From positions 74,034-138,033 of the forward strand of contig JARLIA010000005.1 in assembly GCA_031291955.1 (NCBI GenBank): a stretch of DNA of 64,000 bases. The letters run 5' to 3'. Positions 2,157 to 48,010 of this stretch are shown here, piece by piece; the first letter of the stretch is position 1, and the number at the start of each line of letters is the position of its first letter. Under the pieces are notes generated by a model. That model was not told where the DNA came from. It saw nothing but the letters and a program-made list of their open reading frames with translations, and searched no databases. The translations under genes and the position numbers were made by a program. This stretch comes from Minisyncoccota bacterium. Its GTDB lineage: Bacteria > Patescibacteriota > Minisyncoccia > Moranbacterales > UBA2206.

Positions 2157-2981
2157 TTATTTGCAAGGTTGGGTGAGGATGGGCATGGCGCCGCCGGAAC
2201 AGTGGGGAGGAAATTTTTTGATAACCTGTCTGGTTTGGATCCCTTGGTTGCAAGTGTTCCAATTGCTGTAGGCAAAATTCTGACACTCAAGCGGGACGTA
2301 GTCGCTGCTTTCCGGGCCGCAACTGACTTGGTTTTTGGTAACAAAAATCAGAGCGATAACCAAGAGAACGACAGCAACGAGACCCAAAAAGGTCAGACCT
2401 TTCCAGGTGCGCACCTTTTTCCGGCTGGCCACCACCACTCCGTTTTGCCAAAAGTTTCCCAGCTCGCCCGCGATCTTGTCAATCTCTCGGTCCGAGTCCT
2501 CCTTGAGGCGGGTTTCCATTTGACGGGAACCTTTTCGGACCGTTCCTAAATAATCGGCCAGCGTTACGATGCCGACAATATTTTTCTCGCTATCCACGAC
2601 CGGAAAAGTAGTGAACTTGGTTTCTTTGACTTTGTCCATCAGTGTTGCCACGTCGTCTTCAACTGAAAGCGTCAAAGGATTGGCAGTCATAATGTCTTCG
2701 GCTTTGGCCGTGGCAAGAGTTTCGATCTTTTTTTTCAAATCACTCGGCAAGTGCTCGGCCACTTGGCTTTCTTCCAAGAATTTCAGATAGGTTGGGAAAT
2801 ATATGTCGTCAAATTTCTTGAGGAAGAAGTCGTCTTCGGTGATAAGGCCGACCACTTTTTTTCCTTCTGTTACCGGCACGCCATGGAAGCGATTGGTGAA
2901 CATCAGATCGGAAACTTTGGCAATAGCGGTTTCCGGCGAAACGGTGACGACGTCCCTGGTCATTATGTCTTTTATTTGCAT
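2157..2981 (-). CDS. CBS-pair protein with one TM helix and a C-terminal extracytoplasmic Cys-rich module
   Basis: Two CBS repeats (MTRDVVTVSPET..., MTANPLTLSVEDD...). TM segment GLTFLGLVAVVLLVIALIFV. Tail CGPESSDYVPLECQNFAYSNWNTCNQGIQTRQVIKKFPPHCSGGAMPILTQPC. Confidence 0.8.
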   Translation of the reverse strand: MQIKDIMTRDVVTVSPETAIAKVSDLMFTNRFHGVPVTEGKKVVGLITEDDFFLKKFDDIYFPTYLKFLEESQVAEHLPSDLKKKIETLATAKAEDIMTANPLTLSVEDDVATLMDKVKETKFTTFPVVDSEKNIVGIVTLADYLGTVRKGSRQMETRLKEDSDREIDKIAGELGNFWQNGVVVASRKKVRTWKGLTFLGLVAVVLLVIALIFVTKNQVSCGPESSDYVPLECQNFAYSNWNTCNQGIQTRQVIKKFPPHCSGGAMPILTQPCK

Positions 2982-3115
2982 ATTTTTTATTTTGGTACAG
3001 TGACTTAGTCTTTGTTAAATTATAGCAAAAATGAGACAGTAGGACAAATGACTGTTTTTGTGCTAGACTTTATCAGCTGGCCGGAAGGCTTATTTAATTT
3101 TTTAAAAATGAAATT

Positions 3116-3469
3116 ATGCGAGACATCCAAGAAGTTTATAATGAACTGCAGGAGAACAAAAAAGAGCAGAAAAGCATCAAGCGCGAATACAAGGACGCCT
3201 TGGTCAATGCCAACGAATATGAAGAGACGGTCGAGGAGACGAAAAAACTGCGCGAAAAGAAAAAGCAGATCGAGACTATGACTCAATCCCGTCTCGGTGC
3301 CCGCTGGGACGAATTCGAAACACTGAAAGCCAAGGCTGATGAACTGGCCCAAATGATGACCGATATCGCCATGAGCAATTTGGCTGAAGGCAAAACCATC
3401 GCCGTGAAAGACCAATTTGGGAATGACTATGAGCCGGTGTATAAAATTTCTTTCAAGAAGATCGGGTAA
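3116..3469 (+). CDS. hypothetical coiled-coil protein (117 aa)
   Basis: Charged heptad-like sequence, followed by a terminator. No family recognised. Confidence 0.5.
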   Translation: MRDIQEVYNELQENKKEQKSIKREYKDALVNANEYEETVEETKKLREKKKQIETMTQSRLGARWDEFETLKAKADELAQMMTDIAMSNLAEGKTIAVKDQFGNDYEPVYKISFKKIG

Positions 3470-3854: not shown

Positions 3855-5654
3855 TTACACTTCGATCACCACTGGCAGAACCATCGGTCGCCGCTCCGTC
3901 TTTTGGAAAAGGTAGAGGCCGACAACTTCGCGGATTTTGTCTTCGATGAATTTCTTTTCGACAGAAGTGTTCTTGGAAGTTGTTTCTTTGATGGCCTTTT
4001 GGATCTTGCGTTTGGCTTCGTTCACCAGGTCGAAGTTATCCTTGACGTAGATGAAGCCGCGGGAAGTGACTTGGATGTTGCCGACCACTTTTTTGGTCTT
4101 GCTGTCCAGAAGGATGGTGATGACAAACATTCCGTCTTCGGAAAGGACTTGGCGGTCGCGGAGAACCACCTGGCCGATGTCGCCGATGCCCAGTCCATCG
4201 ACAAAGACGTAGCTCGTGTCGACTTTTTTAGCCAGCACCCGGGCCACGCCCCGTTGTATTTCCAAAACATTTCCATTATCCAAAACGAAAATATTTTCCT
4301 TCCGAAAGCCGATATGTTCGGCCAGTTTGGCGGCCTCTTTCAGCATATAGTGGTTGGCGTAGACCGGTACGAAAATGTCCGGGCGGACCTGGCGCAGCAT
4401 CTCCTCGATATCCGGGGCGCTACAGTGTCCGCTGGTGTGGAGATCCATCAGATTGCCGTGGATGACATTGTCGCATTTCCGGTAAAGGTTGTCTTTCAGC
4501 CGTTGGATGGTGCGTTCGTTGCCTGGAATGACGGAAGAAGAGAAAATTATTGTGTCGGTCTTTTTTATTTTGACGTGGCGATCATTGTCGGTGATGATCC
4601 GGGAAAGCGCGGCGTTATCTTCACCCTGCGCTCCGGTGCAAATGACCACGATCCGGTTTTCCGGAAACTTTCCGATCTCGGAAACCGGAATGAGCGTCTC
4701 TTTATGCGCCTTGATATAGCCCAGGCTTTTGGCGATCTCCACGTTCATCTTCATGCTATATCCCATAAGCGCCACCTTCTTGCCGATTTTTTCGGAGTAT
4801 TCCAGGATATGCCCGATCCTTTTGATCTGGGAAGAAAACGTGCCGATAATGATTTTTCCGGAAGCGGCGCTGATCAGTTTTTCCAAATTGCGATACATCT
4901 CCGCTTCAGTGGTGCGGTTGGGATTGGTAACGATGGCGCCCAAGCTCTCCAGCATCAGGATGCGCGGACTGGGAAGTCCTGTCAGGTGATGATAGGAAAT
5001 CGTTTTGCCCGAAGCGCTGTCTTTTTCCATTGTCCAGTCCCCGGGATGAATGACCGTTCCATCGGGAGTGCGGATGATCACGCCGACCGCGTCCATGATG
5101 GAATGCTCGACTTCAAAGAACGAAATTTCAAATTTGCCCAAGCGTATTTTGTCATCGGCCGAAGCGACTCGTCTGGTTTTGAGATTTTGAGATGAACCTT
5201 TTTCAAAATCTTCCATCCTTCTTTTTACCATGGCGATAGTCAGGTCGCGGCCGATGATCGGCGGATAGCCCAAGCTCTTGAGCAGGATCGGCGCCGCGCC
5301 GATGTGGTCAAGATGGCCGTGGCTCAAGATGACGCCGCGGATGTTTTTTTCTTTCCCTTTCAGATAGCTGATATTGGGAATGATGTAGTCGATACCGGGC
5401 ATGTCTTCCTCAGGGAATTGGATGCCCATATCTAAAATCACGATATCTCCGGCGTATTCGAAGACCGTCATGTTGCGGCCGACTTCCTCGTTTCCTCCCA
5501 AGGGGATGATGCGCAAAGTATCTCTGGTCGAGCCATGTGCTGGACGTCGAGAAGGGGATGATTGTGATTTGGTTGGCTTATTATCAGTCGCGGGAATTGC
5601 GTCCATGTTGTGTGTCCGGCCATAATGGTCAGGTCTGTTTTTTGGCTTATGCAT
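3855..5654 (-). CDS. rnj: ribonuclease J (metallo-beta-lactamase / beta-CASP), paralog 1
   Basis: HGHLDHIG metal motif, beta-CASP body and an RNase J C-terminal domain. Colinear similarity to the neighbouring paralog. Confidence 0.9.
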   Translation of the reverse strand: MHKPKNRPDHYGRTHNMDAIPATDNKPTKSQSSPSRRPAHGSTRDTLRIIPLGGNEEVGRNMTVFEYAGDIVILDMGIQFPEEDMPGIDYIIPNISYLKGKEKNIRGVILSHGHLDHIGAAPILLKSLGYPPIIGRDLTIAMVKRRMEDFEKGSSQNLKTRRVASADDKIRLGKFEISFFEVEHSIMDAVGVIIRTPDGTVIHPGDWTMEKDSASGKTISYHHLTGLPSPRILMLESLGAIVTNPNRTTEAEMYRNLEKLISAASGKIIIGTFSSQIKRIGHILEYSEKIGKKVALMGYSMKMNVEIAKSLGYIKAHKETLIPVSEIGKFPENRIVVICTGAQGEDNAALSRIITDNDRHVKIKKTDTIIFSSSVIPGNERTIQRLKDNLYRKCDNVIHGNLMDLHTSGHCSAPDIEEMLRQVRPDIFVPVYANHYMLKEAAKLAEHIGFRKENIFVLDNGNVLEIQRGVARVLAKKVDTSYVFVDGLGIGDIGQVVLRDRQVLSEDGMFVITILLDSKTKKVVGNIQVTSRGFIYVKDNFDLVNEAKRKIQKAIKETTSKNTSVEKKFIEDKIREVVGLYLFQKTERRPMVLPVVIEV

Positions 5655-5691: not shown

Positions 5692-7506
5692 TTAAACTTC
5701 TATTACAACCGGCAGAATCATGGGTCTTCTTTCCGTTTTTTGGTAGAGATATTGGCCGACGACTTCCCGGATGTTGTTTTTGACGTAGTCCCAGTTGACG
5801 GCTTGGTCGGGAGAAGTTTTTTGGGCCACTACTTCTTCGACTTTTTTCTTGGTGGCGTTCACGAGATCAAAGTTTTCTTTCACAAAAATAAATCCGCGAG
5901 AAGTGACTTGAGGTTTCCCGATGATCTTTTTCGTTTTGCTGTCGATAACCACGGTGATGACAAACATCCCGTCTTTGGCCAGGAGCTGGCGGTCGCGCAG
6001 CACTACTTGTCCCACGTCGCCCACTCCCAGTCCGTCCACCATGACGTTGGAAAGCGGAATTTTTTCGTTGGTCACCTTGCCGTTGCTGCGATAATCTAAT
6101 TCGATGACCCGGCCGTTTTCGCCAATGAGAATTTTGTCTTCTTTCATTCCGACCGCGAGTCCCAGTTCGCCGTGGAGTTTCAGCATGAAATAGTTGCCAT
6201 GGACGGGAATCAAGTATTTCGGCCGGATGAGATTGATCATCATCTTGAGATCTTCCTGGCGCGCGTGACCGCCAGCGTGGACATCCATCATTTTATAGTT
6301 GATGACTTTGGCGTCGTGGCGATAGATCGTGTCCATAATTCCTTGGACCGTCCGTTCATTTCCCGGAATGACCGAAGACGAAAGGACGAAGGTGTCATTT
6401 TTGTGGACTTTTACGAACCGGTGTTCGCCATTGACGATCCGCATGAGGACCGCATTGGATTCGCCTTGCGAGCCGGTGCAGAGAATGGCCACTTTGTTGT
6501 CGGGATATTCATTGACTTTGGAAATAGGAATGAACGTATTCTTTTTAGTCTGGAGATATCCGAGCGAGCGGGCGATTTCTACATTGGTTTTCATGGAATA
6601 GCCGTCCACGGCCACTTTTCGGCCGTGTTTTTCGGCGGCCGCTACCACCGATTGGATGCGGCTAATGAGCGAGGAGAAGGTGGCAAAAATAAGGCGCCCC
6701 TCCCGGGTCTGTTCAAAGATCTCATCCAGGGTTTTGGCAATCTTGGATTCGGACAGGGAATATCCGGGTGTGCGCGAATCGGTCGAGTCGCTCATGAGGG
6801 CTAGGACATTTTCGCTGCCGAGCCGGGCGATCTTGGCCACGTCGGCCGGTGCGTCAGAGATGGGGGAATGATCGAACTTGAAATCACCAGTGTGGACCAC
6901 GGTGCCGACCGGCGTAGTGATGGCCAGGCCCACCGCGTCGGGGATGGTATGGTTGACGTGGAAAAATTCTATGGAAAACGACCCGAGCCGGATGCGGTCG
7001 ATTTTTTTGACGGTGTGAATATTGAGCGGAGCCTTGTCTTGGTAATCCTCTTGGCGTTTCATAACGATGCCGCGGGTCAGTTCGGTCATATAGATCGGAG
7101 GATTGCCGAGTTTTTCCATCAGGTGCGGAATGGCGCCGATGTGGTCATAGTGTCCATGGGTGATTAAAACGCCGCGGATGTTATTTTCTTTGCCTTTCAA
7201 GTACGTTACGTCCGGGATGAGATAATCGATGCCGGGCATGTCCTCGTCCGGGAATTGCAGTCCCATGTCGACGATGATGATGTCCTGGCCATACTCAAAA
7301 ACGGTCATATTGCGGCCAATCTCCTCGAGGCCACCGAGCGGAATGATCCGGAGACTAGGGTTGCCACGGCCAAAAACGTGCGCCGCTGGCTTTCTCTGGG
7401 CGATGACGCCGGTTTTTATGACCGGGGCAACAGCTAAACCAGTCTGGCCAAAGTCGGCCGGTTCCTTCGGTTTTCTGAACATAAATTTGGAAGTGAAGTT
7501 GCTCAT
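5692..7506 (-). CDS. rnj: ribonuclease J, paralog 2
   Basis: HGHYDHIG motif. Colinear with paralog 1 over the whole length. ATG at 7506 preferred over the TTG at 7515. Confidence 0.9.
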   Translation of the reverse strand: MSNFTSKFMFRKPKEPADFGQTGLAVAPVIKTGVIAQRKPAAHVFGRGNPSLRIIPLGGLEEIGRNMTVFEYGQDIIIVDMGLQFPDEDMPGIDYLIPDVTYLKGKENNIRGVLITHGHYDHIGAIPHLMEKLGNPPIYMTELTRGIVMKRQEDYQDKAPLNIHTVKKIDRIRLGSFSIEFFHVNHTIPDAVGLAITTPVGTVVHTGDFKFDHSPISDAPADVAKIARLGSENVLALMSDSTDSRTPGYSLSESKIAKTLDEIFEQTREGRLIFATFSSLISRIQSVVAAAEKHGRKVAVDGYSMKTNVEIARSLGYLQTKKNTFIPISKVNEYPDNKVAILCTGSQGESNAVLMRIVNGEHRFVKVHKNDTFVLSSSVIPGNERTVQGIMDTIYRHDAKVINYKMMDVHAGGHARQEDLKMMINLIRPKYLIPVHGNYFMLKLHGELGLAVGMKEDKILIGENGRVIELDYRSNGKVTNEKIPLSNVMVDGLGVGDVGQVVLRDRQLLAKDGMFVITVVIDSKTKKIIGKPQVTSRGFIFVKENFDLVNATKKKVEEVVAQKTSPDQAVNWDYVKNNIREVVGQYLYQKTERRPMILPVVIEV

Positions 7507-17208: not shown

Positions 17209-17457
17209 TCAACGGCTTTTATCGCTGGCCCTTGGTTTTGTTTTCTTAATGATTATTTCTCTAATTTTCAGGACGCTTTTGCCCGAGACTGGCATTTTCG
17301 GTTTCTTCTTGTTTTCTCGCTTCTCAGCCCCGCCTGCCGCGCTATGCCGCCAATAATCATTTTCATATTGACTGGCAAAGTTTTTGTCTAGCATTAACCC
17401 TTTGAAGTTATCCCCAGACGCGGCATTGCGGGCAGGTTTTGTTTTTTTGGCAGACAT
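17209..17457 (-). CDS. doubtful ORF (82 aa, highly basic) that spans a GC-rich bracket hairpin
   Basis: ATG ORF of low complexity. Contains the 17333..17436 hairpin and a 12-mer motif, so it may be non-coding. Confidence 0.25.
   Translation of the reverse strand: MSAKKTKPARNAASGDNFKGLMLDKNFASQYENDYWRHSAAGGAEKRENKKKPKMPVSGKSVLKIREIIIKKTKPRASDKSR
17333..17436. repeat. long imperfect hairpin with GC-rich bracket (CCTGCC..ATGCCGC / GCGGCAT..GGCAGG)
   Basis: 17333-17350 pairs with 17420-17436 (about 16 bp). On the minus strand the bracket reads CCTGCCCGC...GGCAGGCGGGG, the same cores as the linkers of the nested tRNA locus. Confidence 0.7.
17406..17417 (+). promoter_or_regulatory. variant of the DnaA-box-like 12-mer (AGTTATCCCCAG)
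   Basis: One mismatch to AGTTATCCACAG. Followed by ACGCGGCATTGCGGG, compared with GCGCTTGC at the other copies. Confidence 0.4.
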
Positions 17458-23014: not shown

Positions 23015-26000
23015 ATGGACAAAATCATCATAAAAGGCGCGCGGGAGCATAATTTGAAGAACGTCGACTTGGAGCTGCCGCGGAATAAATTTATCGTTTT
23101 TACGGGAATTTCTGGGTCAGGGAAGTCGACCATGGCTTTTGATACTATTTTTGCCGAGGGGCAACGGCGCTATCTCGAAAGTCTTTCCAGTTACGCTCGG
23201 CAGTTTTTGGGGCAAATGAATAAGCCTGACGTGGACTATATTGAAGGTCTGTCGCCGGCCATTTCCATCGACCAGAAAGCGGCGTCCCACAATCCGCGTT
23301 CGACGGTTGGAACGGTGACGGAAATCCACGATTATTTGCGATTGCTATATGCCAAGATCGGCCGGCCACATTGTCCGATCTGCTCCCGGGAAATTACGAA
23401 GTTGTCGACAGATGAGATTGTTGATCGGATTTTGGAGATGTGCGCCGCGAAACCTCATCCGCCCCGGAGTACTGGGGCACCTTCTCCTTATAAAGGAGAA
23501 GGAGATAATGGAAGGGGCTGTTCTATCGAAATTCTATCGCCGGTGGTTCGCCAGCGGAAAGGGGAATATTCGACGATGCTGGCTGAGATGTTCCGGCGGG
23601 GGTTTTCCCGCGCTTACGTCAATGGGGAAAAATACGAACTGTCGGCCAAGATCGGAGACGAGTTGGAATTGGCCCGCTACAAAAAACATAATATTGATAT
23701 CGTGGTAGATGAGGTGGAGATATCTAGCGACAACATTTCGCGAATATTTGAAGGAGTGGAAAAGGCGCTGAAGTTGTCGGACGGACTGGTCAAGATAAGA
23801 TCCGAAATCCGAAATACGAAATCCGAAACAATGTCAAAATCAAAAATTAAAAATTCAAAACAAAACAATACGGAAATTGTTTTCAACCAAAAACTTTCTT
23901 GTCCGATCCATGAGATTGAGTTTCCGGAGTTGGAGCCGCGTTTGTTTTCTTTCAACAGTCCGTTTGGCGCTTGTCCGGCTTGCGAAGGATTGGGAACGAA
24001 AAAAGAAATCGACCCGGCGCTGGTGGCGCCGGATAAAAACAAAACGATTGCTGAGGGTGGCATCTTCCCTTGGAGCTACAAACGGAATAACTGGCAAGGG
24101 TCGGTTCTCCGGGCGGTTTGCAATCATTTCCACATCAAAGACAATGTGCGCCTCCGTGACCTTTCGGAAGATGACCTCAACATCTTAATGTTCGGCGGAC
24201 CGGATGCGACCGATATGATAGATAAGGAAGAAGCGGAAGAAATACCCGTCACTTTGAAATCAAAAACCGGTTCAAGCTGGAAATATTACATGACCTGGCG
24301 CGGAGCGGTCGGATATCTTCAAGATCGATATTTCAAGACCGATTCGGATGCGGTGCGGGCGGATATTGAAAAATATATGTCGCAAAATCCGTGTTCGGTC
24401 TGTCACGGCGCGCGTTACAAAAAAGAAGTCTTGCTGGTGACGGTCGGCGAATCCCGCCCGCAACGCTTCGCTAACGCAAGTGTTAGCTTGCGTAGCGATG
24501 CGGGCGGGAAAAATATTGTCGAAGTCTCAAATGTGTCTGTGGCTGAGACGCTTAAATTTTTCGAAAGACTGGAATTGAATAAAAATGAGCAGATCATCGC
24601 CGGGAGAATTTTGAAGGAAATTATTAATCGCCTAGGCTTTTTGGAAAACGTGGGACTGGGATATTTGACTTTGGCCAGATCCGCGGCGACACTAGCCGGC
24701 GGGGAAGCGCAACGGATCCGCTTGGCATCGCAAATCGGTTCGGGTCTCACCGGCGTTTTGTATATTTTGGACGAACCGTCGGTCGGTCTTCACTCGCGCG
24801 ACAACACTAAATTGCTCGAGACGCTTTTTCATCTGCGCGATCTGGGAAACACGCTAATCGTGGTTGAGCACGATGAAGAGACGATGCGGGAGGCCGACTA
24901 TTTGGTTGACATCGGACCGGGAGCGGGAAAATTGGGAGGTAAAATTGTGGCGCATGGCACGCCGGTAGAAGTTATTCGCGATAAAAAATCTTTAACCGCG
25001 GCATATTTGCGGGGTGACGCGAAAATAGAAATGCCGAAATTCCGCCGGCCAGTCAAGAATAAAAAAACGATTGTTGTCCGCGGCGCGCGCGAACACAATT
25101 TGAAAAACATTACCGTCGAGTTTCCTTTAAAAGTTTTGACGTGTGTGACGGGCGTGTCCGGCTCGGGGAAATCCACATTGGTAGAGGACATCCTTTATAA
25201 AGCCTTGGCGTCAAAAATCATGCGGACGCTCGACCGGCCGGGGAAACATTCGGAGATTGTCGGCACGCAATATGTTAACAAAGTGATCATGATCGACCAG
25301 TCGCCGATCGGTCGGACGCCGCGCTCCAATCCGGCGACTTATACCGGGCTCTTTACGCCGATCCGGGAATTATTTTCCCAGACCCGGGACGCCAAATCCA
25401 AGGGTTATGGTCCGGGGCGCTTTTCGTTCAACATCCGGGGCGGACGCTGTGACAACTGCCAAGGCGACGGCCAGCTTAAAATTGAGATGCAGTTCATGCC
25501 GGATGTCTATTTGCCTTGCGATGTCTGTCACGGAAAAAGATACAACAGTGAGACCTTGAAAGTGAAATACAAGGACAAAAACATTTCCGAAGTTTTGGAC
25601 ATGACGGTCAGCGAAGGGCGCGAGTTTTTTGAGAATTTTCCGGCTATTCACGACAAGCTGGCGGTTTTGGAAGACGTCGGCTTGGGCTATATCCAACTCG
25701 GGCAGTCCGCCACCACACTTTCCGGCGGGGAAGCGCAAAGGATAAAACTGGCCACGGAACTGGCAAGGAGGGCGACCGGCGACACTTTGTATATTCTGGA
25801 CGAACCGACGACTGGCCTCCATTTTGACGACATTAAAAAACTTTTGAATGTTTTGAACCGCTTGGTCGATGCCGGCAACACAGTGGTGGTGATCGAACAC
25901 AATTTGGACGTCGTCAAAACCGCCGATTGGATCATTGACTTGGGTCCGGAAGGCGGAGAAGGCGGCGGAAAAATTATCGTTACCGGTCCGCCGGAAGAAG

Positions 26001-26062
26001 TGGCGAAATATCATAAGGAAAGCTGGACGGGAAAGTATCTGAGAGATGTATTGAAAAAGTAG
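23015..26062 (+). CDS. uvrA: excinuclease ABC subunit A (1015 aa, with several in-frame insertions)
   Basis: Two ABC ATPase modules ([18 protein letters not shown]), LSGGEAQR signatures and zinc modules CxxC. Confidence 0.95.
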   Translation: MDKIIIKGAREHNLKNVDLELPRNKFIVFTGISGSGKSTMAFDTIFAEGQRRYLESLSSYARQFLGQMNKPDVDYIEGLSPAISIDQKAASHNPRSTVGTVTEIHDYLRLLYAKIGRPHCPICSREITKLSTDEIVDRILEMCAAKPHPPRSTGAPSPYKGEGDNGRGCSIEILSPVVRQRKGEYSTMLAEMFRRGFSRAYVNGEKYELSAKIGDELELARYKKHNIDIVVDEVEISSDNISRIFEGVEKALKLSDGLVKIRSEIRNTKSETMSKSKIKNSKQNNTEIVFNQKLSCPIHEIEFPELEPRLFSFNSPFGACPACEGLGTKKEIDPALVAPDKNKTIAEGGIFPWSYKRNNWQGSVLRAVCNHFHIKDNVRLRDLSEDDLNILMFGGPDATDMIDKEEAEEIPVTLKSKTGSSWKYYMTWRGAVGYLQDRYFKTDSDAVRADIEKYMSQNPCSVCHGARYKKEVLLVTVGESRPQRFANASVSLRSDAGGKNIVEVSNVSVAETLKFFERLELNKNEQIIAGRILKEIINRLGFLENVGLGYLTLARSAATLAGGEAQRIRLASQIGSGLTGVLYILDEPSVGLHSRDNTKLLETLFHLRDLGNTLIVVEHDEETMREADYLVDIGPGAGKLGGKIVAHGTPVEVIRDKKSLTAAYLRGDAKIEMPKFRRPVKNKKTIVVRGAREHNLKNITVEFPLKVLTCVTGVSGSGKSTLVEDILYKALASKIMRTLDRPGKHSEIVGTQYVNKVIMIDQSPIGRTPRSNPATYTGLFTPIRELFSQTRDAKSKGYGPGRFSFNIRGGRCDNCQGDGQLKIEMQFMPDVYLPCDVCHGKRYNSETLKVKYKDKNISEVLDMTVSEGREFFENFPAIHDKLAVLEDVGLGYIQLGQSATTLSGGEAQRIKLATELARRATGDTLYILDEPTTGLHFDDIKKLLNVLNRLVDAGNTVVVIEHNLDVVKTADWIIDLGPEGGEGGGKIIVTGPPEEVAKYHKESWTGKYLRDVLKK
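23461..23502 (+). repeat. in-frame double hairpin inside uvrA
   Basis: GCCCCGG-AGTA-CTGGGGC (23461-23478) and CCTTCTCCTT-ATA-AAGGAGAAGG (23480-23502). Confidence 0.85.
24452..24509 (+). repeat. in-frame 58-nt long hairpin inside uvrA
   Basis: Outer stem TCCCGCCCGC/GCGGGCGGGA (10 bp). Inner stem GCTA(A)CGCAAG/CTTGCGTAGC. Confidence 0.85.
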
Positions 26063-27407: not shown

Positions 27408-30221
27408 ATGCCCACTCAAAAATCTTCTCCTAAAAATACTTTCTCACTGAAGGATAAAATCGTCATCCGTGGCGCGCGGGTGAATAATTTGAAGAACATC
27501 GACGTGGACATTCCGCGGGATAAATTGGTCGTAGTGACAGGTCTTTCCGGGTCGGGGAAATCTTCTTTGGCTTTTGACGTGGTCTACGCCGAAGGCAATC
27601 GGCGGTATCTGGAAGGCATGTCGAGCTACGCCCGGCAGTTTTTGGATGTTTCGGCTAAACCGGACGTGGACAAAATAGAGAATTTGAGCCCGACCATCTC
27701 AATTGATCAAAAAAGCTTGAGTCGTTCACCTCGCTCGACGGTCGGGACGCTCACGGAAATTTACGATTATTTGCGAGTGCTCTACGCCAAAGTGGGAACG
27801 CCCTATTGTCCTCATTGTCTCTTGCCGATGGGGCGCAAAAAGAACCAGGAAATTTTGGAGGAAATTTTGGTTTTGCCGGAAAATACCCAAGTGGCGGTCC
27901 TGGCTCGGATAAAAAATGAAGGTCAGAGTGTTAAGGATATTCTCAAAAACATCAGTCAGCTTGGTTATGCCCGGGCGCGGGTTGGCGGTAAAATCGTCTT
28001 GATTGCCGACGCCTTGCTTTTTCCGGAAGAAAACTTGAGCGGCAACGTCGAAATCGTGGTTGACCGGATCAATCTCAAGAAAAAAAATCCCGATCACGAA
28101 CGGATGTTGGATTCTATTGAGACTGCTTTTAAATTGGGGAAAGGTTTTATGGCGGTCGCAATCGATAATGGTGAGAGCCGGATTTATAATCAAAATTTTG
28201 TTTGCAGCAACTGCTATTTCAAAATTTCGGAAATCACGCCCAAGAATTTTTCTTTCAACAGTCCCGAAGGCGCCTGCGAACATTGCGCGGGAATGGGTAC
28301 TATCCAGGAAGTGGACGAGGATCTGATCATTCCTAACAGAAATCTCACTTTGGCCGAAGGAGCTATTATGCCGCTCGCCAAGTCCGGCGGCCGGGCTGGG
28401 TATCTCGATACTCTCACCAAGATCGGCGAGAAAGCGGGTTTTTCCGTGAATGAACCGGCGCGGAACATTTCCAAGGAAAATTTGAAAGTTATTTTTCATG
28501 GTTTTGGTGTGCCTGGTACTCCTGGTTATTTTGAGGGAGTGGTGCCGATGATTCGAAAAAAATATACCGAAGCGGCCACTCAGACGGCCCGGACCGACAT
28601 CGAAAAATATATGCTGGAAAAAGATTGTCCCGAGTGTGGAGGCAAGCGTTTGAAAAAAGAATATTTATCCGTCTTGATGAGCGGGAAATCGATCGACGAT
28701 TTGGTCCGGATGGATATCGATACTCTCATTTTATTTTTAGAAAATTTACGGACTGCCGATTTGAGTGCCGCCAAAGCGGAAATCGTGGCGCCATTGGCAA
28801 AAGAAATGATCGCCAAAGCCAAGGCGCTCAAGAACGTCGGCTTGGAATATCTGTCACTTTCCCGCCGGGCCGATTCCATTTCCGGCGGCGAAGGTCAGCG
28901 CATCCGGCTCGCAACTCAAATTGGATCGGAACTTTCCGGTATTATCTATGTTCTGGACGAACCGTCTATCGGTCTCCATTCCCGAGACAATGAAAAGTTG
29001 ATCGACACGATGGAAAAGCTGAAAGAGAACGGCAATTCTCTGATCGTGGTCGAGCATGACAAAGACATTATCGAGTGCGCCGATTGGGTGATCGACATGG
29101 GTCCCGGGGCAGGGGAGTTCGGCGGGGAAGTTATCTTTTCCGGTTCGGTGAAAAAAATGGAGAGCGTCGCGACATCCACTGCCAAGTTCCTTTCCGGCCG
29201 GGAAAAAGTAACGGTTAAGAAGAAACCGCGAACGGCATCGAAGAACTTTTTGGAAATCCTGGGTGCCGCAGAACACAATTTGAAAAATATCGACGTCCGG
29301 ATTCCACTCGGCCGTTTTGTTGCCGTCTCGGGCGTGTCCGGTTCGGGGAAATCCACTTTGGTAACCGACATTCTGGCTCGAGAGCTGGCCCGGCATTTTT
29401 GGAAGGCTAAGAAAAATCCCGGAAAGCATGATAAAATCACTGGTCTTAACCGCTTGGATAAAGTGATTAATATCGATCAATCGCCGATCGGCCGGACGCC
29501 GCGTTCCAATGCCGCCACCTACACCGGTGTCTTTTCACTTATTCGGGAACTTTTCTCCGCCACCGAAGAGGCGAAAAAACGGGGCTACGATGCCAGTCGC
29601 TTCAGTTTTAATGTCCGGGGCGGCCGTTGCGAAGATTGCCAAGGCGACGGAACAAAAAAGATCGAGATGCATCTTTTGCCGGATATGTATGTCAAATGCG
29701 AAACTTGCCAGGGAACGCGCTATAACGCCAAGACGCTTGATATTGAATATCAGGGTGCTACCGTCGCCCAGGTGCTGGATATGAGTGTTTCCTACGCGCT
29801 TCGCTTTTTCCATAAATCGCCGCTTATCGCGGCTAAACTGAAAACGCTGGAAGAAGTCGGCCTGGGCTACATCAAACTGGGACAGAGCGCCACAAATCTT
29901 TCCGGCGGAGAAGCGCAGCGGATAAAATTGGCTACCGAGCTCGCCCGGAAATCGACCGGCAAGACTTTGTATATTTTAGATGAACCGACCATCGGGTTGC
30001 ACTTTGAAGATGTGCGGAAATTGCTTCAGGTGCTGGACGCGCTGGTCGAAAAAGGCAACACTGTTCTTGTGGTGGAACATAATTTGGACGTCATCAAGAA
30101 CGCCGACTGGGTGATTGATCTCGGGCCGGAAGGCGGAAACGGGGGCGGCGAAATTGTTTACGCCGGCGAACCGAAGGGGCTGAAGAAAGCGAAGAGGAGT
30201 TGGACAGGAAAATATCTGTAA
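27408..30221 (+). CDS. uvrA: excinuclease ABC subunit A, second paralog (937 aa, no obvious insertions)
   Basis: Same domain order as 23015..26062: [23 protein letters not shown] signatures and zinc modules. Confidence 0.93.
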
Positions 30222-46811: not shown

Positions 46812-47296
46812 TGGACCTCAATATAAACGGCGAAAATTTAAAAAATTTTTTCAAGTGGAGCAACGTCCGGGAAGGTTTTTTCGACTTTTTGGGACGCTGG
46901 GCTAAGTTGCTCTTACTTCTTCTGGCTGTTGCAGGCACGGCCTATTGTGTTTATCTTTGGTATATTTTTATTTATAATCCCGGTTGGAGCGATGTCCAAA
47001 AGCAGCACTATATCCAGACGAAAGGCCAGGGAGTTGTTTTTGACCAAGCCAAATTCAACGCTCTGGTGACGGTTGCCAAGAACCGGGACGTCGCCGAAAA
47101 ACAAGCGCTGACTAACGTGCTGGACATCTTTCGCCTGAAGTCGCTGATTGTGCCGCCCGGCGCGTCTGATTCCAGCACTACTCCCGCCGCCAATCCGCCC
47201 GCCAATTCCGCCACCACGTCCGACTCCAGCGCTGCTCCAGTCGCCAAGTCGCCAGCTTCCAGCCCGCCAGTCGTGGCGAGTCCTTCCGGAAACTAA
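46811..47296 (+). CDS. hypothetical membrane protein with Pro/Ala/Ser-rich tail (last gene of the pilus operon)
   Basis: TAATG overlap with pilO and one TM helix. Confidence 0.6.
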   Translation: MDLNINGENLKNFFKWSNVREGFFDFLGRWAKLLLLLLAVAGTAYCVYLWYIFIYNPGWSDVQKQHYIQTKGQGVVFDQAKFNALVTVAKNRDVAEKQALTNVLDIFRLKSLIVPPGASDSSTTPAANPPANSATTSDSSAAPVAKSPASSPPVVASPSGN

Positions 47297-47326
47297 AAAA
47301 CAATCCCGCCATGGAATTGTTTTTTT
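47295..47326. terminator. bidirectional terminator between the pilus operon and the tRNA block
   Basis: AAAAAACAATCC...GGAATTGTTTTTT hairpin with one bulge. Confidence 0.65.
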
Positions 47327-47386
47327 GTCGCGTGCGCCCTGAGGGATTCGAACCCCCGACCCCTTGGTCCCCCGCCTGCCACGCCG

Positions 47387-47569
47387 TGCCCTCGTCAGGA
47401 CTCGAACCTGAAACGCTTGTTCCGAAGACAAGTGTGATATCCCCGCCTGCCTACGCCTGTGCCCCCTAAAGGAATCGAACCTTTAACCTTCTGGTCCGAA
47501 GCCAGACGCTCTATCCATTGAGCTAAAGGGGCGCAGGCATAGGCGGGCACGGCGTTTCACCACGAGGGC
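47387..47569 (-). tRNA. middle tRNA-like gene (anticodon loop CUUCGGA) interrupted in the D loop by about 110 nt
   Basis: Acceptor GCCCTCG/CGAGGGC, D stem GTGA/TCAC, anticodon arm CTTGT-CTTCGGA-ACAAG, T arm TCAGG-TTCGAGT-CCTGA, discriminator A. Confidence 0.5.
47460..47532 (-). tRNA. tRNA-Arg (anticodon UCG), intact
   Basis: GCCCCTT-TA-GCTC-AATGGATA-GAGC-G-TCTGG-CTTCGGA-CCAGA-AGGTT-AAAGG-TTCGATT-CCTTT-AGGGGGC-A. 73 nt. Confidence 0.9.
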
Positions 47570-47664
47570 GTGTACGGCGGGCAGGGAAGCCAAGTACTCT
47601 ATCCACTGAGCTAAGGGCGCATAAATACATTCTGGCATTTCTTGGTAATTCCGTCCAGCGCGGA

Positions 47665-47682
47665 TACGTAATTAATTACGTA
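47665..47682. promoter_or_regulatory. perfect 18-bp palindrome TACGTAATTAATTACGTA upstream of the nested tRNA locus
   Basis: Direct reading. 45 nt upstream (minus-strand sense) of the outer tRNA 5' end. Confidence 0.5.
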
Positions 47683-47702
47683 CGCAGTTGATAAGACTAA
47701 TA

Positions 47703-47892: not shown

Positions 47893-47937
47893 GAAAAATA
47901 AAACATTTTAATATGTTCGAATGTTAATATGCTTTTG

Positions 47938-48010
47938 TGCGCCGAGCAGGAATCGGACCTGCGACCAAAAGGTTAGAAACCTTCTGCTCTATCCACTGAG
48001 CTACCGGCGC
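47938..48010 (-). tRNA. tRNA-Arg (anticodon UCU), T loop reads TCCGATT
   Basis: GCGCCGG-TA-GCTC-AGTGGATA-GAGC-A-GAAGG-TTTCTAA-CCTTT-TGGTC-GCAGG-TCCGATT-CCTGC-TCGGCGC-A. Confidence 0.88.

Follow-up and report, generated by a model that had tools for sequence, protein, structure and literature searches.

We find that whole tRNA genes can lie nested inside other tRNA genes of a bacterium. Our subject is a 64,000-nt stretch from a Minisyncoccota bacterium, a member of the Patescibacteria (assembly GCA_031291955.1, contig JARLIA010000005.1), hereafter the window. On its minus strand, positions 47620-47333 hold an intact tRNA-Arg(UCG) within a tRNA-Arg(UCG) split in the D loop, itself within a tRNA-Arg(UCG) split between positions 35 and 36. 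The two inserts share conserved ends, and therefore are two copies of one element family, termed here the H element; we call the tRNA gene that an H element carries its cargo, and the split tRNA gene around it the shell. The finding is real and general, reaching beyond this one locus. Our favoured reading, which we consider probable, is that a palindromic tRNA-carrying cassette invades tRNA genes repeatedly and replaces the gene that it splits, only the innermost tRNA being needed; the inner tRNA-Arg(UCG) of the window is probably the working gene. The parts of the locus and its flanks are as follows, in 5' to 3' order.

47621-47700, minus strand: upstream block, about 73 nt of it shared with relative L124 at about 92% identity; relative L125 lacks the block
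47586-47620, minus strand: outer tRNA-Arg(UCG), 5' part, 35 nt, positions 1-35, ending CUUC
47576-47585, minus strand: 5' end (H5) of the first-level cassette, the 10-mer CCTGCCCGCC
47570-47575, minus strand: 5' linker of the first-level cassette, GTACAC (GAACAC in L124, GTCAC in L128)
47553-47569, minus strand: middle tRNA-Arg(UCG) (the first-level cargo), 5' part, through D-loop AACG
47542-47552, minus strand: H5 of the second-level cassette, CCGTGCCCGCC, the variant with one extra G
47533-47541, minus strand: 5' linker of the second-level cassette, TATGCCTGC, pairing with 47459-47452
47460-47532, minus strand: inner intact tRNA-Arg(UCG) (the second-level cargo), called by ARAGORN with score 122.0 and by RF00005 with 73.3 bits
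47452-47459, minus strand: 3' linker of the second-level cassette, CAGGCGTA, from sequence reading and fold
47442-47451, minus strand: 3' end (H3) of the second-level cassette, GGCAGGCGGG, exact match
47387-47441, minus strand: middle tRNA-Arg(UCG), 3' part, D-loop GATA through discriminator A
47381-47386, minus strand: 3' linker of the first-level cassette, CGGCGT, identical in L124
47371-47380, minus strand: H3 of the first-level cassette, GGCAGGCGGG, exact match
47333-47370, minus strand: outer tRNA-Arg(UCG), 3' part, 38 nt, positions 36-73, beginning GGA
47295-47327, minus strand: terminator-like hairpin and T run, AAAAAAACAATTCC..GGATTGTTTTTT, immediately 3' of the outer gene, read by eye

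The three-level nesting and the position of every piece, as given in an initial annotation made from the letters alone, are confirmed to the base; 215 nt separate the pieces of the outer gene and 111 nt those of the middle gene. In the raw sequence ARAGORN and Rfam call the inner gene only, as tRNA-Arg(tcg). Joined in silico, the outer gene is accepted by ARAGORN as a tRNA-Arg(tcg) of 73 nt with score 122.2 and the middle gene as a tRNA-Arg(tcg) of 72 nt with score 120.3, to be compared with 122.0 for the inner gene and a mean of 117.9 for 144 stand-alone tRNAs of related contigs. The covariance-model test of the split genes was indirect, through the RF00005 scores of near-identical uninterrupted genes in relatives: the joined middle gene has 72/72 identity with an uninterrupted gene at L124 6274-6345 (63.0 bits) and the joined outer gene 71/74 identity with one at L125 5804-5877 (68.1 bits). 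By ARAGORN, and by RF00005 on these equivalents, both split genes form the cloverleaves that had been drawn for them. The intron mode of ARAGORN gave mostly false parses on our loci and was not used.

The predicted fold of the 288-nt RNA (-149.7 kcal/mol; z = -6.7 relative to 200 shuffles) shows the nested arrangement together with both linker helices. The GC-rich helices of the earlier description therefore stand, and there is more to them: the inserts are copies of one element family, not merely GC-rich linkers. A chance origin is ruled out by the fold and by the two-part motif, which is expected 0.00 times in shuffles of the window. A second, independent NCBI assembly (GCA_031291895.1, L176) is identical over 811/811 nt. 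An assembly artefact is excluded, and the nested architecture and the cassette are established.

A loaded H element consists of CCTGCCCGCC, a linker of 4-20 nt, a whole tRNA, another linker and GGCAGGCGGG. One-level elements measure 104-135 nt and empty copies 24-51 nt. Both window inserts have the 5' end CC(G)TGCCCGCC and the 3' end GGCAGGCGGG; the same CCTGCCCGCC opens the insert in L001, L002, L124, L128 and at least about 100 metagenome loci, and the CCG variant of H5 is present in L033 too. Ends and linkers pair into a stem that reaches the acceptor stem of the cargo, which is bounded precisely at tRNA position +1 and the discriminator; in the fold of the window locus the second-level linker helix is continuous up to that acceptor stem. 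The pairing of CCTGCCCGCC with GGCAGGCGGG can be flush, with 10 pairs including one U.G and one C.A, or shifted (CCUGCC/GGCAGG, and CGCC with GGCG of the 3' linker), leaving a 3' CGGG tail. The predicted fold puts the first-level insert in the shifted register and the second-level insert in the flush one, and it is the shifted register in which a short variant, in L019, shows covariation (CGAC/GTCG). The second-level linkers (TATGCCTGC / ..AGGCGTA) also enclose tRNA-Leu cargos in L110 and L115, so that a single "vector" serves more than one kind of cargo. Cutting the element out at its ends gives back exact tRNAs, with no duplication of the target.

The element matches no known intron. The first-level insert lies between C35 and G36, an anticodon-loop site that it shares with the group I introns of Patescibacteria; the junctions are flush at the base of the 10-bp helix or beside the 4-nt 3' tail (CGGG), according to the pairing register, and show no exon consensus save a weak A/G preference across the cut. 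No bulge-helix-bulge (two 3-nt bulges 4 bp apart) is seen at the exon-intron junctions of the fold. Archaeal split and interrupted tRNAs, which the initial annotation had named as the closest precedents, are thus a resemblance only, the host being bacterial and the junctions being without that motif. No Rfam family other than tRNA was found in the window and 18 loci at the gathering threshold, or in 47250-47700 at E values up to 5. We rejected a group I intron, for which Rfam finds no catalytic core (P3-P9) and 104-135 nt is too short, and also a group II intron or other known intron or ribozyme, there being no core and no Rfam match beyond tRNA. The element encodes no homing endonuclease; its 104-135 nt are stem plus tRNA.

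The history of the locus can be read at the orthologous gene of relatives, in which the order VanW - tRNA-Arg(UCU) - Lys - His - Arg(UCG) - pilus genes is preserved. The tRNA-Arg(UCG) gene is uninterrupted in L125 and in L129 (VanW 74% and 55% identical to that of the window, respectively). One cassette occupies site 35/36 in L124 (VanW 82%), its cargo being the window's middle, GTGA-type gene in intact form, and one with a same-type cargo occupies site 35/36 in L128 (VanW 55%). In the window the cassette at 35/36 is as in L124 and L128, but its cargo is itself interrupted in the D loop by a second cassette. Site 35/36 therefore shows a presence/absence polymorphism of the homing type, empty in L125 and L129 and filled in L124, L128 and the window; the one-level state comes from two other assemblies of other projects. 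The three tRNA genes of the window are 65-72% alike and of two D-arm types, GCTC/GAGY and GTGA/TCAC. The series of zero, one and two levels gives direct support, at the level of sequence comparison, to repeated insertion of a tRNA-carrying cassette, one of three readings offered in the initial annotation and the one that syntenic relatives bear out; its cassette ends recur at at least about 100 further loci. The order of events that these relatives show is an intact gene, then a GTGA-type cassette at 35/36, then a standard-type cassette in the D loop of the first cargo. The "uninterrupted" gene of L125 bears the anticodon arm of the cargo, possibly a footprint of loss through recombination between shell and cargo.

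Other rearrangements were seen in this neighbourhood and at other loci. A partial second tRNA-Lys stands beside tRNA-Lys in L124 (5650-5990) and L128 (about 4150-4290); the L124 copy has the hairpin CCCCGACTTTAGTCGGGG where its anticodon arm should be, and a small open reading frame (ORF) between the two tRNA-Lys copies there looks GIY-YIG-like by eye. In L001 (2640-2990, reverse strand) and L129 (about 4160-4470) a 16-19-nt direct repeat of a tRNA 3' end surrounds an insert of 150-190 nt, which resembles a small-scale integration footprint. In L127 the orthologous tRNA-Arg gene has a serine recombinase gene next to it.

H elements are widespread. Among species-representative genomes, searched for the junction, the same insert is present in the tRNA-Arg(UCG) of a Saccharibacteria metagenome-assembled genome (MAG) and of a second MAG, labelled Ca. 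Tyrphobacter, which may be mis-binned because its flanks are AT-rich. A metagenome scan with the pattern TGCCCGCC..GTTCRA..GGCAGGCGGG gave at least 120 loci, about 100 of them real, and these at least about 100 loci come from JGI, ENA, NCBI and Logan. Locus L003 (genome contigs) and about 20% of the listed metagenome matches are left out as matches that arose by chance in GC-rich coding DNA. The counts of cargos, shells, insertion sites and neighbouring ORFs given from here on are among the matches listed.

All of the approximately 97 real elements contain an ARAGORN-valid tRNA, together covering 26 anticodons and 12 amino acids. Of 61 rebuilt pairs, 52 agree in anticodon between host and cargo, where 3.6 are expected (P ~2e-54). 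Most of the mismatches are ARAGORN mis-parses of hosts with further inserts; L059 and L062 are exceptions, in which the shells resemble their Arg(CCU) cargo except for a changed or unreadable anticodon. Insertions fall in the D loop or the 3' D-stem strand (25), the anticodon loop (23) and the T loop (4), and none was found in other tRNA stems.

A comparison of shells with cargos is central to the favoured reading. About 58 of the 97 shells can be rebuilt by one excision, and in the 50 rebuilt pairs compared the cargo outscores its own shell 38 to 12 (Wilcoxon P = 7e-6). The shells of L022, L045, L055, L057, L059 and L062 have lost G18G19, the T loop or the anticodon. In three close relatives, whose neighbouring proteins are 90-92% identical, the shell is intact in one, has lost one G of the GG in another and has a 25-nt deletion in the third; their cargos show a single-base difference. 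Layers can be unequal or mixed: L015 has at least four identical 5' layers and two 3' layers, and one layer of L113 is chimeric, with mismatched halves. The Thr(CGU) shells of L049, L088 and L116 hold another insert in place of the anticodon, and many shells contain extra small hairpins of several families. A hairpin-removal scan, which recovered 6/6 spiked positive controls, found none with a single hairpin insert among the stand-alone tRNA genes of 821 kb (108 loci and the window; 144 stand-alone tRNA genes in the Patescibacteria loci). Conserved tRNA positions showed no clear difference between ARAGORN-recognised shells and stand-alone tRNAs; the paired score test is the more informative of the two comparisons. 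Shells appear to be dispensable and are in many cases decayed; cargos never are.

This bears on the other two readings of the initial annotation, that the halves of one precursor are held together and ligated, or that nested insertions killed two genes. The evidence leans to the latter, for which uninterrupted relatives exist (L125 and L129) and decay of the window halves was looked for and none seen; the former keeps support from those undecayed halves.

Cargo-less H hairpins occur in phage genes. We found 46 copies in viral contigs; the viral-contig loci number 45, some with 2-3 copies. They are 24-51 nt long, and the length is a multiple of three in 41 of the 46 (P for at least 41/46 ~5e-15); the other five, mostly in DNA of 66-74% G+C, look like chance matches, leaving 41/41 of the likely true copies. 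The hairpins lie in both orientations inside long ORFs that belong to related phages, among them the gene for the portal protein (phrog_64), and ORF clustering found only phage structural genes in common among the 45 loci. Comparison of filled and empty sites in the portal gene (L146/L155) reveals an exact 27-nt insertion with no duplication. The phrog_64 portal genes of L146, L151, L155, L158, L159 and L165 have one or two in-frame H hairpins, each adding nine residues (PARQGLAGG, or RLPSLGGQ in the other orientation). The reading frame is always kept, and therefore the hairpin is translated, not spliced, in phage genes; judged from these sequences, it appears to behave as a DNA-level mobile insertion that is retained in the RNA.

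The same 33-nt empty hairpin is found in phage contigs and in the tRNA-Ala shell of L050, where empty, loaded and empty H copies stand in tandem, an arrangement that hints at cargo capture between two hairpins. The loaded cassette was not met in phages: blastn against 50,697 phage records gave ordinary tRNA similarity only, and a scan of viral contigs gave one chance match in GC-rich coding DNA. A phage origin of the locus is accordingly unsupported by these searches.

Several inserts differ from the standard element. L061 (reverse strand, about 1770-1880) has an H element with a non-tRNA cargo of about 50 nt, in a host sequence truncated by the contig end. A second cassette family, with ends TCCCGAC...GTCGGGA, places a tRNA-Ala(UGC) in a tRNA-Ala(UGC) at 35/36 (L114, about 2800-3120, reverse strand); as far as sequence can tell, it shows the cassette principle to be independent of any single hairpin sequence. 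The T loop of the L114 host also contains a 20-nt palindrome, CCTGCCTGCCGGCAGGCAGG. A further recurrent insert, the hairpin CCGCCnnnGGCGG followed by ATAAACTCC, is found in L008, L049, L088, L116 (Thr-CGU shells) and L118 (Leu shell), replacing the anticodon loop in the Thr shells and lying in the D loop of the Leu shell; its conserved tail ATAAACTCC suggests yet another element family.

We suggest the following course of events. Insertion would split and silence the host gene, and the cargo would supply the lost tRNA. Because the cargo replaces the silenced gene, only same-anticodon insertions would be viable, and survivorship after the silencing of a single-copy gene would be expected to leave just such an anticodon match. 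The element would probably spread to new genomes, once its DNA had been taken up, through homologous recombination at the shell halves, in the style of intron homing, which would keep the insertion site and gene type constant. Since the cargo is itself an uninterrupted copy of the target, it could be invaded next, giving an onion-like nesting. The nested unit may be transcribed from the promoter of the outer gene (in block 47700-47621) to the hairpin and T run at about 47327-47295, and the usual enzymes that mature tRNA 5' and 3' ends may then free the innermost tRNA, perhaps once the long stem has been cut. The two halves of a split gene would be by-products that decay over evolutionary time. 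That the window halves are pristine would mean that both invasions are recent or that gene conversion with the cargo has occurred.

Some features of the flanks bear on the transcription of the unit. The upstream block 47621-47700 contains a perfect 18-nt palindrome, TACGTAATTAATTACGTA, at 47682-47665, and a terminator-like hairpin at 47728-47703 lies between the block and tRNA-His. From its sequence and position the block is a possible promoter or operator of the nested unit, and this palindrome block may have arrived with or before the first cassette. A consensus scan found no sigma-70 promoter upstream of the unit, and the hairpin and T run at 47327-47295 were not among the matches of the consensus terminator/promoter scan; L124 has a counterpart of that hairpin with compensating changes.

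A number of observations weigh against repeated invasion and replacement. Both window shells are flawless, with ARAGORN scores on par with that of the inner gene. At third codon positions VanW of the window is 59% identical to that of L124 and 53% to that of L125, and despite this divergence the outer shell is 70/74 identical between the window and L124, the sole stem change being a compensated pair (U31-A39 to G31-C39) that spans the insert. L128, with VanW at 55%, has the same insertion and an intact shell. If the insertion was inherited from a common ancestor, this implies selection on the split gene; the favoured reading must invoke independent recent invasions, or co-conversion, for the conserved shells. 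The Ile(GAU) loci L006, L009, L016 and L107 likewise have perfect shells (4/4) with many compensatory stem changes. Three of the four are linked by shared neighbouring genes with 48-64% amino-acid identity, and the stem of their cassette covaries (CTG/CAG, TCA/TGA, CCG/CGG), which counts for splicing. The insertion sites are confined to would-be RNA loops, as for a spliced intron, and loaded cassettes are never met in neutral intergenic DNA, which survivorship alone cannot explain. ORF clustering found no consistent ORF family within 2.5 kb of the approximately 100 elements that could be a linked enzyme; the largest families there are LepA (7 loci), the CCA-adding enzyme (6) and GIY-YIG-like small ORFs (6). 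The favoured reading accounts neither for the enzyme that moves the hairpin nor for the loading of cargo, and homing through the shell halves is something that we infer. The in-frame evidence comes from phage genes whose hosts are not assigned, and bears on splicing in Patescibacteria indirectly.

An ancient shared insertion is not taken here as proof of selection on shells, in view of the discordance between cargos and hosts and the gene conversion between shells and cargos. The relationships of the Ile(GAU) cargos disagree with those of their hosts, the cargo being 93% identical between the most distant hosts, and in L009, L107 and L124 the shell has an anticodon arm identical to that of its cargo, which in sequence terms indicates probable gene conversion. 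Together these signs suggest that horizontal movement and gene conversion are common, and they can keep shells young-looking.

The alternative that we take most seriously, while holding it unlikely, is a helix-defined bacterial tRNA intron, in which the H stem marks both splice sites and three tRNA-Arg(UCG) come from one precursor here. A Patescibacteria endonuclease would cut at the base of the CCUGCCCGCC/GGCAGGCGGG helix, a ligase would join the halves, and the excised piece would be trimmed to the cargo; spread would be like that of a homing intron, so that the element remains in its starting gene type. Much of what was just set out speaks for it: both window shells are perfect; shell conservation in the window, L124 and L128 is far above neutral divergence, with the compensated pair across the insert; and every Ile(GAU) shell is perfect at 48-64% neighbour amino-acid identity, with a covarying linker helix. 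Removal of the element at its conserved ends leaves in every case an exact tRNA and no duplication, these ends are conserved across cargo types, the sites are limited to the D, anticodon and T loop regions as in archaeal non-canonical introns, and tRNA introns at 35/36 are already known in Patescibacteria (PMC13011429). Against it, the cargo-less hairpins in phage genes are in frame (41/41) and in both orientations, which would be pointless if they were spliced; working splicing would make any tRNA gene a harmless target, yet cargo and host nearly always match; shells decay and cargos never do; and hairpins accumulate in shells, with no single hairpin in any stand-alone tRNA gene of the 821 kb. 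There is also no bulge-helix-bulge, no group I or II core and no Rfam match, and among the 40 ORFs within the 64-kb window there is no EndA-type or RtcB-like domain. Protein-dependent tRNA splicing is, to our knowledge, not known in bacteria. That Patescibacteria have it, directed by a CCUGCCCGCC/GGCAGGCGGG helix flush with the splice sites and making the nested genes polycistrons within genes, we regard as doubtful.

The remaining alternatives we rate much lower. Shells might be kept for a non-decoding use, as a scaffold for the cargo, a decoy for tRNA-cutting toxins or a spoiled phage integration site. The shells at this locus are better conserved than neutral DNA, and the serine recombinase of L127 with the 3'-end duplications of L127/L129 shows that the orthologous gene is used as an integration site; many shells are, however, badly damaged or lopsided with the cargo unaffected, no sequence feature indicates a specific scaffold or decoy role, and we think this use very unlikely. 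Hardly better than that, and if anything a little worse, is formation in place, through local duplication or recombination of a resident tRNA round a pre-existing hairpin and later divergence, with no outside cassette. Shell and cargo are indeed near-identical in L032 (0.99), L024 (0.97) and L066 (0.94), L015 has its four or more identical 5' layers, and anticodon arms are shared in L009, L107 and L124. The window genes, by contrast, are only 65-72% alike and of two D-arm types; across families, cargos resemble their own shells (0.77) hardly more than they do the shells of other loci (0.73); the same linkers enclose different cargos; and relatives with zero, one and two levels fit insertion. 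Nor is there a simple recombination path to a whole gene inside itself: starting from tandem copies or from an empty hairpin, we could devise none. An assembly chimera or collapsed repeat is scarcely credible. Three similar genes are what short-read assemblers can mis-join, and the unequal layer numbers of L015 could be such an error, but an independent assembly is identical over 811 nt, the one-level state is found in two other assemblies from other projects, the architecture is shared by at least about 100 loci from JGI, ENA, NCBI and Logan, and the three genes differ by 28-35%, too much to collapse.

The rest of the window is unexceptional in gene content, with typically bacterial genes (type IV pilus, UvrABC, sigma-70, TsaD, RNase J). 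Its RNase J paralogs are in tandem (3855-5654 and 5692-7506), and two UvrA-like genes (23015-26062 and 27408-30221) flank UvrC. A third exact GGCAGGCGGG, at 17329-17338, lies inside an ORF with no partner motif and is a chance match. Among stand-alone tRNAs, the tRNA-Arg(UCU) of the window (47937-48010) has the T loop TCCGA, with C at position 55, where U is near-universal; tRNA-His of L124 (5996-6067) has the same loop, and U55 is missing in 11 of the 144 stand-alone tRNAs of the Patescibacteria loci.

If repeated invasion by a tRNA-carrying cassette is correct, the H element is selfish DNA to which even an essential single-copy gene is open, since a working copy of that gene comes with it, and the carried copy becomes the next target, giving onion-layered genes. 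It would then explain horizontal replacement of tRNA genes in bacteria with reduced genomes, link Patescibacteria with phages bearing the same hairpin in structural genes, and leave layers that are a readable fossil record of successive invasions. Patescibacteria tRNA genes would also be under-counted or mis-placed by standard finders, which call nothing but the innermost gene and to which the shells pass for junk. Should splicing be correct instead, this would be the first case of protein-dependent (endonuclease-and-ligase) splicing of tRNAs in a bacterium, a categorically new thing, and a new way to encode several tRNAs per gene, with a bearing on the origins of split and intron-containing tRNAs. 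On either reading, the 10-nt ends offer an easy means of searching for what is a large class of unannotated loci. What is new is the carried replacement of the invaded tRNA gene, leading to nesting; full-text literature searches, including one for the motif itself, gave no prior description of the cassette or of nested tRNA loci. The closest paper describes group I introns that interrupt tRNA genes of Patescibacteria at 35/36 (Nakagawa et al. 2026, PMC13011429).

Those group I introns resemble the H element in phylum, in the 35/36 position (for the first-level insert) and in having hosts that are missed by tRNA finders. The H element differs in having no core and no Rfam match, in its length of 104-135 nt, in the tRNA inside it, and in using D- and T-loop sites also.

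Homing introns and free-standing endonucleases share with the H element the presence or absence at the identical site of orthologs in close relatives, discordance between element and host relationships, and exon bases at the site that look co-converted. The H element encodes no endonuclease, GIY-YIG-like small ORFs being near 6 loci only, and would be tolerated through its carried replacement gene, not through splicing.

Archaea have non-canonical tRNA introns and split or tri-split tRNAs (Nanoarchaeum, Caldivirga, Thermoproteales), and transposition of introns has been proposed for Thermoproteales. The H loci are like these in that D, anticodon and T loops are interrupted, several times per gene in some cases, by related inserts in different tRNAs, and in that GC-rich helices bring halves together as in split tRNAs. 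They differ in their bacterial host, in lacking the bulge-helix-bulge and in having as insert a whole tRNA of the same anticodon, and the evidence here points away from splicing.

Miniature inverted-repeat transposable elements (MITEs) and composite transposons offer another comparison, with terminal inverted repeats, no coding capacity, a passenger between the ends (compare the L050 tandem) and, for the H element putatively, mobilisation in trans. The H element makes no target-site duplication and is therefore not a classic MITE; its passenger is bounded exactly at +1 and the discriminator, and its targets are of the passenger's own tRNA kind.

Integrative elements and prophages at tRNA genes are also mobile, also target a tRNA gene and also bring sequence that preserves tRNA function. 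The H cassette replaces the whole gene and not just a displaced 3' part, measures about 105 nt, has no integrase and no attachment-site repeat, and leaves the displaced gene as flanking halves.

Several traits of palindromic selfish DNA are present in the H element, which is short and non-coding, has pairing inverted-repeat ends, and occurs in many copies in unrelated sites and genomes (at least 120 metagenome loci and 45 viral-contig loci). Rickettsia palindromic elements (RPEs), reportedly recognised by Ogata et al. in 2000 as selfish palindromic DNA inside genes, are short, non-coding, palindromic and multi-copy; they form translated in-frame insertions in protein genes, and their mobilising enzyme is unidentified. 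Cargo-less H hairpins are likewise short, non-coding, palindromic, present in many copies and in frame in protein-coding genes; compared by traits and not by sequence, they are much shorter (24-51 nt), with strictly conserved 10-nt ends, and are found in phage contigs and Patescibacteria. The loaded H form carries a whole tRNA gene and is nested in a tRNA gene of the same anticodon, and we know of no RPE equivalent of it. By analogy, then, the H element seems to work most like selfish DNA of the RPE kind joined to the logic of those elements that rebuild the tRNA gene they enter.

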